A stretch of DNA of 64,000 bases. Origin: Candidatus Micrarchaeota archaeon. Its GTDB lineage: Archaea > Micrarchaeota > Micrarchaeia > Micrarchaeales > CABMGC01. Every line of letters starts with the position of its first letter. The stretch's first letter is position 1. Below, piece after piece: positions 20,326-24,736 of the stretch. The notes under the pieces are model-generated. The model searched no databases. It saw only the letters and a program-made list of their open reading frames with translations, and was not told the DNA's origin. A program made the translations under genes and the position numbers. The stretch spans positions 32,156 to 96,155 of the forward strand of contig JAJZZD010000002.1 in the NCBI GenBank assembly GCA_021797745.1. Direction: 5' to 3'.

Positions 20326-21057
20326 TTGCTTAAAGTTAAAAAAACAATCTCGAATGATAAGATGCGGAATAGCAAAGAGTTTCGTGCAAAGCCCATTTCT
20401 GTCGTAATTCCGACCCTTAACGAAGAAGGCAATATAGCAAACGTGATTAGCGGGATAGGAAAAGTGCTGAGAAATTACAAGTACGAGATAATAGTAGTGG
20501 ATGGCCATTCAAAAGACAAGACAGTAATGATTGCAAAGAGGCTTGGAGCAAGGGTAATCTACGACAATCTGGGAAAAGGAAGCGCACTGGTCAGAGGTTT
20601 AAACAAAGCTGGCGGAGACGTCCTTATTTCAATGGACGCCGATATGTCCAACGAACCGAAAGAACTCATAGCGCTCATAACTAACATAGAAAAAGGCTAT
20701 GACATGTGCGCAGGCTCGCGCTTCATGAAAGGCGGCGGCTCAGAAGACATTCCTTTCATAAGGAAAATAGGCAACAAGTTTTTTGTGCATCTAGTAAATG
20801 CGATATTCCGCGCGCAATTCACCGACATGTGCTATGGATACCGGAGCTTCAGCAGAACGGCATTCGGAAAACTGCGATTAAAAGAAAAAGGATTCGGGAT
20901 AGAAACTGAGATAAACATACAGGCCGTGATGGCTGGGCTGAAAATAAAGGAAATACCGAGCTTTGAAAAGAAAAGAGAGTCAGGCCAGGGCAAGCTAAGT
21001 ACTGTAAGAGACGGGTACGTGATACTCAAAACAATAATGAAAAACATGGGAAGATAA
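20326..21057 (+). CDS. GT2 glycosyltransferase (dolichol-phosphate sugar synthase-like)
   Basis: SVVIPTLNEE, VVDGHSKDKT, MDAD, GSRF, TDMCYGYR. Confidence 0.92.
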   Translation: MLKVKKTISNDKMRNSKEFRAKPISVVIPTLNEEGNIANVISGIGKVLRNYKYEIIVVDGHSKDKTVMIAKRLGARVIYDNLGKGSALVRGLNKAGGDVLISMDADMSNEPKELIALITNIEKGYDMCAGSRFMKGGGSEDIPFIRKIGNKFFVHLVNAIFRAQFTDMCYGYRSFSRTAFGKLRLKEKGFGIETEINIQAVMAGLKIKEIPSFEKKRESGQGKLSTVRDGYVILKTIMKNMGR

Positions 21058-21068
21058 TCAAGAGGGCC

Positions 21069-21209
21069 TTATTCGTCTGCATAGACGATGCGCCATACAT
21101 TGTGCCTTTCCGGAACCAATTTCACCGGCCTTTTATCATTCCTTACTGCTTCTTCGCGCATTTTTTCGATGCTTTTCCTGTTCATCACTTCTTCCAGCCA
21201 ATTTCTCAT
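21069..21209 (-). CDS. Small protein (46 aa), not in ORF track
   Basis: Translated by hand: MRNWLEEVMNRKSIEKMREEAVRNDKRPVKLVPERHNVWRIVYADE; ATGA overlap with the stop of 21206-21487. Confidence 0.55.
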   Translation of the reverse strand: MRNWLEEVMNRKSIEKMREEAVRNDKRPVKLVPERHNVWRIVYADE

Positions 21210-21487
21210 GCAATCACCTTTGCATTCTTGAAAGTGTAATGACTTTCACACGCAGAGCAGCAGTTTGAATTTTTTGCATATATTTCCTTCACGAATTTTT
21301 CCGCAACAGCTTCATCGTTTGATTCGGCAACTACGACAAATCCGAAATCGCCGCTTGTTATGTTCACCTCCTTCACTCCGCTTATCATTGAAATCCTCAT
21401 GGCAAAGTCCTTTGCATTCAGTTTTTCCTTCGGTTTGAGAAGGAAAAAGACTCGATGCTTATGTTTGTTGTTTTTCTTGCTGCGCAT
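21206..21487 (-). CDS. Stand-alone Lrp/AsnC ligand-binding (RAM)-like domain protein
   Basis: FFLLKP...FA..I..ISGVKEVNITSGDFGFVVVA matches the AsnC C-terminal domain pattern; no HTH. Confidence 0.7.
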   Translation of the reverse strand: MRSKKNNKHKHRVFFLLKPKEKLNAKDFAMRISMISGVKEVNITSGDFGFVVVAESNDEAVAEKFVKEIYAKNSNCCSACESHYTFKNAKVIA

Positions 21488-21678
21488 CAGACCACATCGG
21501 ATCTATCAAAACTGCAATCACTAAACTGGCGCACAGGGTGGGTGTGGGGACAGAATAACCGCTGTGCGCCAGATAAGCAGGAAGTGGGTGGGATGGTGGG
21601 AACTGGAAAATTTGGTAATCTTATGCAAAAGGAGTGAGGGAAACGAATAACGTGTATTTCGTTTTTCAAACCGTTCAT
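21487..21678 (-). CDS. Possible 63-aa leader ORF or structured leader RNA
   Basis: GGTGGGA SD-like element upstream, TTTTAAATA box at ~21715-21723, TGATG coupling to the next gene; atypical Pro/Cys-rich composition. Confidence 0.4.
   Translation of the reverse strand: MNGLKNEIHVIRFPHSFCIRLPNFPVPTIPPTSCLSGAQRLFCPHTHPVRQFSDCSFDRSDVV
21526..21572. repeat. Perfect 11-bp inverted repeat (CTGGCGCACAG...CTGTGCGCCAG) with 25-nt G-rich loop
   Basis: Read directly from sequence. Confidence 0.85.
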
Positions 21679-21927
21679 CTTCCCACCATCTAAATGTATT
21701 ATGACTTTTGTTTTATTTAAAAAGGAGAGGAAATAACAGTCAGGAAAAGATCGACTGTCTGAAAAATTATGATTTATTTCTGCATAAAGCTGTAAAGTCA
21801 GAAGTTTAACCCGTTGCGTTTACCCTCCGCGTAAATAACGTGTTTGACGAGAGAAAACGATGTCTATTTTCATGACAATGCTTAAATAGGCAAAAATTCA
21901 CAATATATGTTGTAAGGTGGGAATACG

Positions 21928-23364
21928 GTGGATTTGCCTGCGGGGATATCGAATAAACTGCATGAGCTGAAAGGCCAATACGACCACTACATCGAGGTCA
22001 AGAAAATACACAACAGCTACTGCGTGTTCCAGTCCATTACCAAATACGACAGGAAAAAGAAGAAGTCGAAGAAGGTGACCCATTATCTCGGCACGATACA
22101 CGAAAGCGGCGAATTTGTTCCTGCAGTTCACAGGTCGAAGTTCGAGAATGTGGAGAACGGCAGCGGAAATGAAACCGCAGAAGAAGGTACCGTTAAAATA
22201 AAAGACAACGCCGAAGAGAGAGAACTTGATAACAAGATACTCACAGCATTGAGCATGAACGCAAGAATCGAGATGCCAAATCTTGGCAAACTTGTCGGCG
22301 TGAGTGAAGGCACGGCGAGGAACAGGGTCGAGAAACTAAAGAAGAAGTACGGTATTTCTTCTACTGCATTCATTGATAGGTCAAAACTTGGCTATTTTAC
22401 CTTTATCTCATTAATAAAATTTAAAGACAGCGTCCCGAATCTAGGCGGATTAAAGGAGGCATTGGAAAATGAACCGAGAATTCTGCTTGCCATGTTCACA
22501 AAAGGTGACTATGACTTGATGCTACTTTTTATTGCCGAAGATAATAACGCAGTATCTGATTTTACCTGGCATTTAAGGAAGGATACTGTCCTTGCGAAAT
22601 ACAACATGAAATTCTACACATCGTCATTTTTCAAGCAGTACGGCAATATACCGATACGACAAAAAACGTTTGAACTTCTGAGTGATAAGGCATGGCATAG
22701 AACAAAGGAAAATCCAAGGCCGTTGCCAGGAGAATTAACACAAAGAGAAGTGAATGTGCTGAAAGAGCTTGCTTATGATGGTTTTGCAAAATTCATAGAT
22801 ATAGATAGAAAATATGGGTACGAACCTGGCGCGGCATACCACACATACACAAAGTTAAGAGAAAGAAACGTGATACGGAGGATGACTATAACCATACGTA
22901 ATTTGCCGATAAAATACTGCTCTGTACTGTTAATGGAAGACTCAAATGGAGTGGAAATGCTAGAAACTAGGGCAAATCTTCTTAAAGAGATAATAGACGA
23001 GACAGAGCATGAAATTAATAAGTATGCACTTGTAGGAGAGGTAGAACTGCCTAAAGGCTTTATTTTCATAATGCCCATCTTCGATGAAAATGAACTCATG
23101 CATACACAAGAAGAACTTCAGATAAAAATAAAAGGCAGAGAGATAAAAAGCCTAATTGCAACAAATATATTTGTTGGAACTCTCTGCTATGAAAGATATG
23201 ACAATACTGATATTTTATGTAGCCAGTATCAGATATTGGCAAATGAGTATAAGGAAGTGCCCTGGATAGAGCCCAAAAACTACTTTGATAAGTTTGCCTT
23301 TAAGAAAACTGAAAAATTTGACCTTATTAAGCCACCAAAACCTGTGAAGCACATAATTAACTGA
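21928..23364 (+). CDS. Large tandem Lrp/AsnC-family regulator with extra N-terminal domain
   Basis: LDNKILTALSMNAR..MPNLGKLVGVSEGTARNRVEKL (HTH), GDYDLML (RAM domain), second HTH LTQREVNVLKEL..DG...F..I, second RAM-like domain; GGTGG SD. Confidence 0.82.
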   Translation: MDLPAGISNKLHELKGQYDHYIEVKKIHNSYCVFQSITKYDRKKKKSKKVTHYLGTIHESGEFVPAVHRSKFENVENGSGNETAEEGTVKIKDNAEERELDNKILTALSMNARIEMPNLGKLVGVSEGTARNRVEKLKKKYGISSTAFIDRSKLGYFTFISLIKFKDSVPNLGGLKEALENEPRILLAMFTKGDYDLMLLFIAEDNNAVSDFTWHLRKDTVLAKYNMKFYTSSFFKQYGNIPIRQKTFELLSDKAWHRTKENPRPLPGELTQREVNVLKELAYDGFAKFIDIDRKYGYEPGAAYHTYTKLRERNVIRRMTITIRNLPIKYCSVLLMEDSNGVEMLETRANLLKEIIDETEHEINKYALVGEVELPKGFIFIMPIFDENELMHTQEELQIKIKGREIKSLIATNIFVGTLCYERYDNTDILCSQYQILANEYKEVPWIEPKNYFDKFAFKKTEKFDLIKPPKPVKHIIN

Positions 23365-23388
23365 TGCTATCGCTAACCTAAAACAAGA

Positions 23389-23421
23389 TTAGCCGTTCCC
23401 ATTTCCTCCTTCTCCTACCAT
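23389..23421 (-). CDS. Putative micropeptide MVGEGGNGNG (or small RNA)
   Basis: TTGGTAATCTT-ATG...GGC TAA; TTTAAA box ~31 bp upstream of the ATG; paralog at 23957-23998. Confidence 0.5.
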   Translation of the reverse strand: MVGEGGNGNG

Positions 23422-23449
23422 AAGATTACCAATGATATTTCAACGTAAC

Positions 23450-23508
23450 AGTTTAAAAAGGTATTGAAGACGCTTTTGTTGTAGAATAAACACTGCATTA
23501 TGCCTCAT
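23450..23508 (-). promoter_or_regulatory. Promoter-like 59-bp repeat, copy A
   Basis: Ungapped 44/59 match to 24587-24645, including identical CTGCATTATGCCTCAT and AGTTTAAAA. Confidence 0.65.
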
Positions 23509-23938
23509 GATTGTTGAAACGCATATCAATCTTCTTCGGGAGATAATAAGCGATACAGAGCAGGGAATCAACAAATACGCGCTTGTCGGTGATATTGAAG
23601 TTCCGAAAAGGGTCATTTTCTTCATGCCTGTATTCGATGAAAACGAGCTTGCACAAACACAAGAAGAAATGCAAAGAAAGCTAAAGGGCAGAGAAATAAG
23701 AAGCTTGATAGCTACAAATGTAATTGTAGGGGACTTTTGCTATAAAAGATTCGACAATACGGATATTTCTTGCAGTCAGTATCAGATACTGGCAAATGAG
23801 TACAAGATAGTTCCATGGGTGGAACCAAAAAGTTATTTTGACAAATTCGATGCATTAATGCATAAAAGCTCAGAACCGATAGAATTACCTAAATTAAACA
23901 TAAAGAGTAAATTAAATTACAAAATTAGCGAGATTTGA
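23507..23938 (+). CDS. Orphan paralog of the C-terminal domain of the 21928-23364 regulator
   Basis: About 70% aa identity by eye over ~113 aa, no indels or stops, many synonymous changes. Confidence 0.75.
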   Translation: MIVETHINLLREIISDTEQGINKYALVGDIEVPKRVIFFMPVFDENELAQTQEEMQRKLKGREIRSLIATNVIVGDFCYKRFDNTDISCSQYQILANEYKIVPWVEPKSYFDKFDALMHKSSEPIELPKLNIKSKLNYKISEI

Positions 23939-23956
23939 ACACTTTGCTCTGACGTT

Positions 23957-23998
23957 TTAGCCTCCGGAGGCGCCGCCTGCTTCTCCTTCTCCTAGCAT
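23957..23998 (-). CDS. Putative micropeptide MLGEGEAGGASGG (or small RNA)
   Basis: Same TTGGTAATCTT-ATG leader and GGC TAA end as 23389-23421; TTTAAAA box ~32 bp upstream. Confidence 0.5.
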   Translation of the reverse strand: MLGEGEAGGASGG

Positions 23999-24068
23999 AA
24001 GATTACCAATTATACATGGAAAAGTAGGCTTTTAAACCTTGCCTTACCCCTCGGCAACCGTTATTTTT

Positions 24069-24560
24069 TTACCTGTTTAAAGGTTTTTCCCAGACATAAA
24101 CACGTCGCATCCTGATTTTTCTTCTTAGCATTCTTATACGCTTATATCCGAGTTTTTTGAACATATCGTTTGATATGACATTACCTACCCTTACTCTGCA
24201 CTGTATCTTGTCCCAGCGCCTGGCTGGCTCGATTTCGAAGCTTCTAACAAGCAGTGTCCCGATTCCTTTGTGCCTATAGCTTTTTTTTACGGCAATCCAT
24301 GTGATCCAGCACACGCTGGGTATGGACGGATAAAGATCTGCTACAGCAATGCCGGCCATCGTGCCGCCGACCGTCGCTATCCTAAAGATAGACCCGCCGC
24401 GTCTCATCAAACGTTCTATATTTTCTGGAGAGTAGTCCTCTTTGTTTCTGAGTATATCACGCGGCGTATAATATGCCGCTAATCCTTTTATGACATTTAG
24501 CAGTAGCGAAGAGGCCGCCTTGACCTCAGATTGCTTAAGTTCTCTTATTGCTACTTTCAC
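24069..24560 (-). CDS. GNAT family N-acetyltransferase
   Basis: WIAVKKSYRHKGIGTLL acetyl-CoA motif, N..S..MFKKLGY; start placed at GTG 24560. Confidence 0.88.
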   Translation of the reverse strand: MKVAIRELKQSEVKAASSLLLNVIKGLAAYYTPRDILRNKEDYSPENIERLMRRGGSIFRIATVGGTMAGIAVADLYPSIPSVCWITWIAVKKSYRHKGIGTLLVRSFEIEPARRWDKIQCRVRVGNVISNDMFKKLGYKRIRMLRRKIRMRRVYVWEKPLNR

Positions 24561-24586
24561 GCAATCAATACCTACTTCGCCATAAA

Positions 24587-24645
24587 AGTTTAAAAGTGTA
24601 GCAAGTAAGATTTTGCAGTATACTAAGCGCTGCATTATGCCTCAT
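24587..24645 (-). promoter_or_regulatory. Promoter-like 59-bp repeat, copy B, upstream of the GNAT gene
   Basis: See copy A; TATA-like box ~29 bp upstream of the GTG. Confidence 0.65.
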
Positions 24646-24736
24646 TTTTCAGCCAGAGCCAAAGGCAGACTGATAGGCGGATATTTCTGTATTTGAAACT
24701 AGAACTGAGAAAAATACACAAGGCATTGCTGCTGAA

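Follow-up and report, generated by a model that had tools for sequence, protein, structure and literature searches.

Regulators whose genes adjoin a tiny peptide gene are familiar from bacteria and phages. In the RRNPP and arbitrium pairs (Rap-Phr, PlcR-PapR, PrgX-cCF10/iCF10 and AimR-AimP) a receptor built of tetratricopeptide repeats (TPR) is matched with a peptide whose precursor is secreted, processed and re-imported, and in pCF10 the prgQ and prgX genes are convergently transcribed and influence each other through antisense effects. Very short open reading frames (ORFs) also act in leader-peptide attenuation, as in the his, trp, phe and ilv leaders. The double Lrp-like proteins NirDL and AhbA-AhbB are, to our knowledge, single-copy enzymes of the haem pathway, and we know of no micro-ORF linked to them. 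The available part of a review of the archaeal Lrp/AsnC regulators, or feast/famine regulatory proteins (FFRPs), describes hetero-oligomers of FL11 and DM1 (PMC2995911), and small archaeal proteins have been found in Methanosarcina mazei by ribosome profiling (Ribo-seq) or peptidomics, according to the accessible text of PMC11456600. Here we describe a locus within a 64,000-nt stretch of DNA (the window; assembly GCA_021797745.1, contig JAJZZD010000002.1, positions 32,156 to 96,155) of a Candidatus Micrarchaeota archaeon, where the gene for a predicted tandem-Lrp regulator, and an orphan copy of its C-terminal part, are each followed on the opposite strand by a Gly-rich micro-ORF (Table 1). 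Comparison with related genomes establishes these as a conserved, co-duplicating pair of regulator and putative micro-gene, the latter under constraint of a translational type.

The initial annotation had read this locus as a candidate regulator-micropeptide module. Its statements about the regulator, the orphan, both micro-ORFs, their leaders and the TTTAAA boxes all check out, and the 9-nt length difference between micro-ORFs A and B does preserve the frame (10 versus 13 codons). The window has just two copies of a 28-nt segment made up of the leader and first codons (0 expected from 100 shuffles), and there are no others in the whole 806-kb genome. When the two copies are aligned, an island of ~33 nt with two mismatches (31/33), restricted to the leader and first micro-ORF codons, is flanked by diverged 3' sequence; the island stands out although synonymous positions in the two protein copies have reached saturation (pS, the synonymous difference, is 0.80). 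The orphan is 65% identical to the regulator (E 1e-53) and comprises the second RAM domain (RAM2) minus its first strand, together with the C-terminal helix. The same residue is encoded at 85 of 125 codons, 38 of these by a different codon, and with a non-synonymous difference (pN) of 0.19 the pN/pS ratio is 0.23. By these values the orphan copy is old and under purifying selection at the protein level, and is thus probably a working small protein. The palindromic TTTAAA box of micro-ORF A is, on the other strand, ~50 nt upstream of the start codon (ATG) of the orphan ORF, and might act for both genes.

Table 1. Features of the window locus, modelled segments of the regulator, and unrelated convergent genes at other loci. 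Positions are in window coordinates unless residues or another locus are named; AF2, AlphaFold2; SD, Shine-Dalgarno; wHTH, winged helix-turn-helix.
Feature	Position	Strand	Remarks
Predicted tandem-Lrp regulator ORF	21928-23364	+	478 aa; stop TGA at 23362-23364
Micro-ORF A, MVGEGGNGNG	23389-23421	-	10 codons + TAA, Gly-rich; ends 24 nt from regulator stop
Leader of micro-ORF A	23422-23433	-	12 nt, SD-like GGTAATC; identical in copy B
TTTAAA TATA-like box of A	23452-23457		36 nt before micro-ORF A ATG; putative promoter
Orphan C-terminal ORF	23507-23938	+	143 aa; copy of regulator residues ~343-468
Micro-ORF B, MLGEGEAGGASGG	23957-23998	-	13 codons + TAA, Gly-rich; ends 18 nt from orphan stop
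Leader of micro-ORF B	23999-24010	-	12 nt, same as leader of A
TTTAAA TATA-like box of B, within AAGGTTTAAAAGCC	24031-24036		38 nt before micro-ORF B ATG
Stand-alone RAM-like protein gene	21206-21487	-	93 aa; divergent, upstream of regulator
GNAT acetyltransferase gene	24069-24635	-	Pfam Acetyltransf_1, 43.1 bits; next gene past micro-gene B promoter
N-terminal alpha/beta domain	regulator residues 1-65		AF2 model
Disordered linker	regulator residues 69-92		AF2 model
wHTH1 + RAM1	regulator residues 95-239		AF2 model; RAM strands/helices 144-239
wHTH2 + RAM2	regulator residues 272-416		AF2 model; wHTH2 272-312 (model only), RAM 316-416
Helix	regulator residues 432-441		AF2 model
Disordered tail	regulator residues 457-478		AF2 model
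~60-aa convergent genes	L023 1222-1413; L035 1241-1423; L047 1238-1417		all of a single small family (E between pairs 1e-7 to 1e-15)

The pairing recurs throughout the source genome (0.8 Mb in nine contigs, 90.6% complete), which has six full-length paralogs of 30-37% identity as well as the orphan copy; a convergent micro-ORF lies behind all seven, and two more distant homologs in the same genome lack one. Each unit has the same layout on the opposite strand, with a TATA-like box, a ~30-nt spacer and the ATG of a short Gly-rich ORF, the predicted peptides including MLGGTN, MEGGMGGQ and MDDPGNGD. No gene caller reports these ORFs, as had been anticipated. An unbiased scan of the genome for micro-ORFs with at least 30% Gly and both TATA-like and SD-like signals returned six, every one convergent and downstream of a family member; the identical scan of shuffled genomes returned 0-2. 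We also applied a rule with no glycine criterion (an ORF of 4-20 codons that starts with ATG and has, before it, an SD-like motif at 3-14 nt and a TATA-like box at 28-55 nt), which is passed by 6/6 full-length family genes versus 5/595 other open frames of at least 200 aa, and none of those five has a Gly-rich micro-ORF. The box RGGTTTAAA is present at 20 sites in this genome, nine of which precede such micro-ORFs, and the combination TTTAAA-N0-2-CCTT is not specific to micro-genes (7/22 sites). One instructive example is on contig C4 (55030-55920; our locus L006, 2898-3800), where two degenerate C-terminal fragments (77 and 52 aa) come after a full regulator gene and each has a micro-ORF of its own; the three micro-ORF units are spaced at ~355-400 nt, and their promoters and leaders are nearly identical. 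The architecture matches that of the window locus.

The observation extends well beyond the window. A single-protein query found the family in 31 of 41 relatives, and a profile found it in 32/35 and 49/56 genomes of two sister families, with only 3/109 genomes of 23 other families positive (phylum sample, E<=1e-30); on this sampling the regulator is restricted to the two sister families, which belong to a single order. Genomes in this lineage are 0.6-1.2 Mb in size, with 5-9 diverged copies per genome of ~1 Mb, some genomes having up to eight or more. Under strict criteria (at least 30% Gly plus an SD motif, within 300 nt) 24 of 49 regulator 3' ends have a micro-ORF, and micro-ORF density reaches 1.84 per kb in these windows, compared with 0.04 per kb in the rest of the same loci. 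The rule without glycine is passed by 32/50 ends in the first sample and by 11/16 ends in a replication with genomes not previously sampled. In combination 47 of 69 ends pass; they have 56 micro-ORFs, whose median length is 9 codons and whose median distance from the regulator is 42 nt. Six of the 22 misses have a Gly-rich micro-ORF that fails the TATA or spacing rule alone, although one of these is dubious; with relaxed rules the number of passing ends rises by 5-6. Locus L022 of the unpublished genome G038 is excluded from all counts beyond the early stage, as are L029, L055 and L072, which have short downstream DNA or an incomplete 3' end, and genome G210 is outside the sample; duplicate places, and L073 (which lies inside L092), are counted once. 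The initial annotation had made its proposal depend on homologs having a downstream micro-ORF, and those in other genera, like all source-genome paralogs, carry one with promoter-like and SD-like signals; the condition named for refutation does not hold, and the module is no coincidence of one locus. Its proposed M-x-G-E-G motif did not hold up; what is conserved instead is the set of expression signals and a Gly-rich, hydrophilic composition.

Two further observations concern these loci. At L081 a 73-aa convergent ORF with a Cys-x-x-Cys motif lies downstream of the regulator, and presumably resembles the C-terminal end of a TnpB-type protein. In the draft genomes many family genes lie close to a contig end, at a distance of a few hundred bases, with about 20 places starting at bases 31-762 of their contig, which suggests that the paralogs, or repeats adjoining them, break assemblies.

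Sequence comparison shows that the C-terminal (RAM2) part of the regulator has been co-duplicated with the micro-gene. In 40 related pairs, conservation of the 60-nt region before the micro-ORF equals that of the regulator coding sequence (0.69 in each case). Locus L092 (G122:C11:39000-58900) has five paralogs on one strand within 19 kb, all five with a convergent micro-ORF of their own. The five proteins are only 35% identical (31-41%), whereas the 60-nt regions upstream of their micro-genes are 82% identical (77-87%); the regions upstream of the regulator genes themselves are 65% identical, and the peptides differ between paralogs. A different arrangement is seen at L026 (1123-1325), where there is an array with a 55-nt period containing at least five complete units of SD, ATG, seven codons and stop, on the strand convergent to the regulator, with peptides of the form M-G/S-G-S/A-G-G-G-G/S.

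Several lines of evidence favour translation of the micro-ORFs. The rule-defined peptides are 32% and 36% Gly in the two samples versus 6.7% in the proteome, and GGN triplets are found 171 times in the frame of the ATG versus 19 and 25 times in the other frames. We considered whether the Gly codons are a by-product of selection for GGAGG as an SD mimic; the share of GGA is 64% before GGN and 62% elsewhere, and because use is equal in both contexts the glycines are not a shadow of such motifs. At conserved Gly positions GGC, GGA and GGT alternate among related units, and some residues other than Gly are also conserved within clades, such as a Pro in GG-P-x-GG in one clade and an Asp at position 2. 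The motifs preceding the ATG are mostly of the GGTGA type and are complementary to the 3' end of 16S rRNA (...GATCACCTC in three relatives; complement GAGGTGATC); the relatives were used since no 16S rRNA gene was found in the source genome assembly. The peptides are 5-20 residues long and hydrophilic, with a hydrophobic fraction of 16%. The initial annotation had noted that there is no signal peptide, and ORFs of 5-20 codons do not have the space for one. The suggestion that the micro-ORFs are remnants of a longer gene was rejected, as no more than three of the convergent ORFs of 45-95 aa belong to a common family, and the others seem to be spurious.

The regulator has a HTH_AsnC Pfam match of 35.2 bits (cut-off 27) at residues 99-138, and a RAM match of 19.7 bits that is under the cut-off of 25. 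A profile built from 45 family members matches Lrp/AsnC regulators in the PDB (PH1519, E 5e-16), although at positions 99-244 only. The AF2 model derived from the same alignment (pLDDT, the predicted local confidence, 89; pTM, the predicted template-modelling score, 0.77) has two units of wHTH plus RAM in one chain, and its best Foldseek match is to the fused double-Lrp protein NirDL (4ch7, E 3e-12, 360 columns, 12% identity), followed by dozens of single Lrp/AsnC regulators with target-side template-modelling (TM) scores of 0.6-0.8; all significant matches are Lrp-like or ferredoxin-like barrels. The two hallmarks of the Lrp/AsnC (FFRP) family, an AsnC-type wHTH and a C-terminal RAM domain (beta-alpha-beta-beta-alpha-beta), are thus both present, the latter by virtue of the fold. 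The protein is confidently modelled as a tandem Lrp, and the name given to it initially is correct on account of the AF2 model and Foldseek comparison, as the primary sequence is recognisable in the first unit only. No TPR family is among the Pfam matches of the regulator, and the model's folded core is made entirely of wHTH and RAM units. The N-terminal domain has nothing above the Pfam cut-off, and an Atlas search matched only unnamed clusters of small proteins. One family member in the databases, from a Candidatus Micrarchaeia archaeon, carries the NCBI name of Lrp/AsnC regulator.

A third component of the module is the stand-alone RAM-like gene, which by its recurrence is frequent but not universal. 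The 93-aa protein in the window matches Pfam AsnC_trans_reg with 20.2 bits (E 5.6e-4), short of the cut-off of 25, and single-sequence tblastn detects a homolog at 19/49 loci, 300-900 nt upstream of the regulator and on the opposite strand. A gene with the same placement is present at L006 (817-1113, minus strand), and the size range is ~93-98 aa.

What might these micro-genes do? We favour, with a probability of about 0.4, a role for each peptide as the paralog-specific partner of the neighbouring regulator, probably acting at its RAM2/C-terminal unit, with antisense overlap of the two transcripts as an added layer. In keeping with this, the expression signals are shared while the peptides vary, residues other than Gly are conserved, and the arrays suggest dosage. 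According to this proposal the regulator and its tail-to-tail micro-gene would be a lineage-specific pair whose two members are passed on and duplicated together, and the micro-gene would be separately promoted and translated into an unprocessed, cytoplasmic, hydrophilic and Gly-rich peptide of 5-20 residues. The peptide would then be an effector or modulator of the neighbouring regulator through the RAM2/C-terminal unit. The near-identical promoters may switch on all of the micro-genes of a genome together, and the two convergent transcripts of a pair probably run into each other at the 3' ends, so that regulator and micro-gene would be coupled through antisense.

There is a substantial list of points that weigh against a partner role. 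Gly-rich peptides of low complexity do not lend themselves to specific recognition, and roughly one peptide in four contains just one or two Gly. The ligands of known RAM pockets are single amino acids, as described in the available part of PMC2995911. The promoter and 5' untranslated region (UTR) are better conserved than the body of the peptide (0.69 versus 0.53 in the 40 related pairs), and a role for the act of expression therefore fits as well as one for the peptide. Nothing convincing is present at 14/69 ends (with the dubious case counted here), and at a further 3/69 the place is taken by the unrelated ~60-aa convergent gene, for which no Pfam family is matched; a comparable ORF is present once at a locus of an unpublished genome that is left out of the counts. 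The sharing of micro-gene promoters between paralogs argues against each regulator controlling its own micro-gene alone, and although the TATA boxes of several units lie within AAGG-TTTAAA-CCTT-like palindromes, these were not significant as operator candidates, with flank complementarity of 2.45 versus 2.25 +/- 0.22 pairs of 8 for shuffles (33 promoters). The genomes are kin, such that the counts overstate independence.

Second in rank is a cis-acting device, in which it is the transcription and translation of the micro-ORF at the regulator 3' end that matters and the peptide is a by-product. It could operate through antisense or transcriptional-interference control, and the Gly codons could tie ribosome transit to charged tRNA-Gly in the manner of a leader peptide. 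The strictly convergent orientation and small gap are in keeping with this, as is the greater conservation of the promoter and 5' UTR, the limits of the 31-of-33-nt island in the window, and the preservation of composition over sequence. Oligo-T is an archaeal termination signal, and we scored runs of at least five T between the regulator stop and the micro-ORF. These occur in 5/47 pairs on the regulator strand and 15/47 on the micro-gene strand, and because most pairs have no such signal in the gap, 3'-3' overlap of the transcripts is predicted, as a cis device would use. However, a by-product would not be expected to keep its clade-specific Pro and Asp residues, tandem arrays of up to five or more complete SD-ORF units are easier to understand as a means of raising the dose of a product than as a sensor, and some peptides have just one or two Gly. 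The window copies have no alternative-hairpin structure, there is no co-directional downstream gene to attenuate, and the convergent orientation may be mere inheritance from the ancestral unit. We place a cis device on the unlikely side, behind the partner role.

The micro-gene could also encode an independent small protein that works at another site in the cell or, through contact, on the host, with the regulator as its controller or simply a linked neighbour. The evidence for translation from in-frame GGN triplets, synonymous Gly codons and SD-16S complementarity serves this explanation equally, the near-identical promoters of paralogous micro-genes suggest that they are co-regulated as a set, and so many copies are retained in the small genomes of a host-dependent lineage. 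Nonetheless, there is no such micro-ORF apart from family members in the source genome, the regulator C-terminal part and the micro-gene duplicate jointly, and the peptides have neither an export signal nor a conserved sequence of the kind that would suit a common external target. An independent function is distinctly unlikely.

A conserved non-coding element, either a small RNA (sRNA) or a pyrimidine-rich (CCUCC-like) 3' UTR of the regulator, with the ORF incidental, would account for the over-use of GGA (107 of the 171 Gly codons versus ~31% in the genome's long ORFs) and hence for a purine-rich strand, and the regulator transcript probably runs through the region. Such an element would not require an ATG at a fixed distance from the SD and TATA motifs, as in 47/69 units, nor Gly codons that are in frame, indifferent to a following GGN and alternating between GGC, GGT and GGA. 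Two units contain TGATGA and CTGA, the boxes of a C/D-box sRNA, and this idea was discarded since the window copies have no Rfam match: a search of Rfam 15, which includes the C/D-box sRNAs, gave no match at E<=1 on either strand of window positions 21000-24700. A structured sRNA was similarly discarded, as folding of both strands of both window copies was no better than for shuffles (z +0.10, +1.43, -0.41 and +0.01). Three metatranscriptome contig sets from the same study have no contig on window positions 21200-24700, and this provides no evidence either way. The initial annotation had left a choice of micropeptide or dual sRNA; the reading frame, synonymous changes and SD-16S complementarity, together with the lack of an Rfam match or fold, favour a translated micro-gene over the sRNA, and a purely non-coding element seems very improbable. 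An enzyme-like double-Lrp protein with a micro-ORF unrelated to gene regulation, as the top structural match to the siroheme decarboxylases NirDL/AhbAB might imply, is hardly credible, because that match stems from the fusion of two units, with identity at 12%, the first unit resembles DNA-binding Lrp regulators in sequence, and the number of diverged copies per genome is unlike that of a single biosynthetic enzyme.

The pairing is of interest in several respects. These ultra-small genomes have few regulators, yet they maintain up to eight or more diverged copies of a ~450-aa regulator, each with a micro-gene. It illustrates that ORFs of fewer than 20 codons can be conserved genes, and if the peptides are made they would be among the shortest independently promoted genes known, in a family defined by composition and position. 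If the peptides act on the neighbouring regulators, the range of RAM ligands would widen from amino acids to gene-encoded peptides, and peptide-based regulation would enter the Archaea. In its strongest form, the proposal is that these are the first unprocessed, intracellular, ribosomally made peptide effectors of RAM/Lrp-type regulators and the first archaeal peptide-regulator circuits, with a private peptide for each paralog, and we regard this as rather unlikely. With private peptides, 5-9 paralogs and co-fired micro-genes would make a bank of orthogonal switches; it might serve a host-dependent life cycle, and the peptides might even pass to the host. If it is instead the act of translation that matters, this would be a new 3'-end control device. 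In either case the pairing offers a concrete and testable way to approach how DPANN symbionts, some of them now available in co-culture, regulate their genes.

We found no description of a tandem-Lrp/micro-ORF pairing in the literature searched, in which supplementary files were not covered. In the text available to us, the FFRP review (PMC2995911) does not use the words 'tandem', 'fused' or 'fusion', PMC5498576 describes a different Lrp in a copper island, and PMC8975820 mentions RNA sequencing of a co-culture and not this regulator family. The closest relatives by domain content are the archaeal Lrp/AsnC regulators and RAM-only proteins (FL11/PH1519, LrpA and DM1), with the same order of AsnC-type wHTH and then RAM domain in the regulators; the regulator described here differs in fusing two such units, in adding an N-terminal domain of no known family, and in its linkage to a micro-ORF. 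The RAM-only gene beside the regulator recalls the FL11-DM1 hetero-oligomers as far as these are described in the available text. NirDL and AhbA-AhbB share the two-unit Lrp-like architecture, but at low identity, and the first unit of the regulator scores as DNA-binding.

Among systems with very short ORFs, the micro-genes are like leader peptides in being enriched in one amino acid with an otherwise variable sequence. They differ from leader attenuators in that the transcripts of the window copies have no alternative hairpins, what lies downstream is the regulator in antisense only, and arrays of the ORFs occur; without such hairpins or downstream genes, the module does not qualify as a classical attenuator. 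Nor is it a type I toxin-antitoxin system, as the peptides are not hydrophobic (fraction 0.16, Gly 0.32-0.36, 5-20 residues). Like other archaeal small-protein genes they are unannotated and, here by prediction, independently transcribed; with a median of nine codons they are shorter than the proteins in the accessible reports, which are mostly tens of residues and are not presented as a family linked to one kind of regulator, and they are exclusive to the 3' ends of one gene family.

The comparison with RRNPP and arbitrium systems, drawn by the initial annotation, stands in part. A regulator gene adjoins a tiny peptide gene, and paralogous pairs have distinct peptides. Membership in that group does not follow, because the regulator has a Lrp fold with no TPR, and the ORF has no room for a signal or pro-region and thus no secreted precursor; the module is also archaeal. 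It may nevertheless work in an RRNPP-like manner inside the cell. A regulator with a linked small-peptide gene is a known kind of system, and its occurrence in the archaeal domain with a putative receptor of the Lrp fold is one for which we know of no example.

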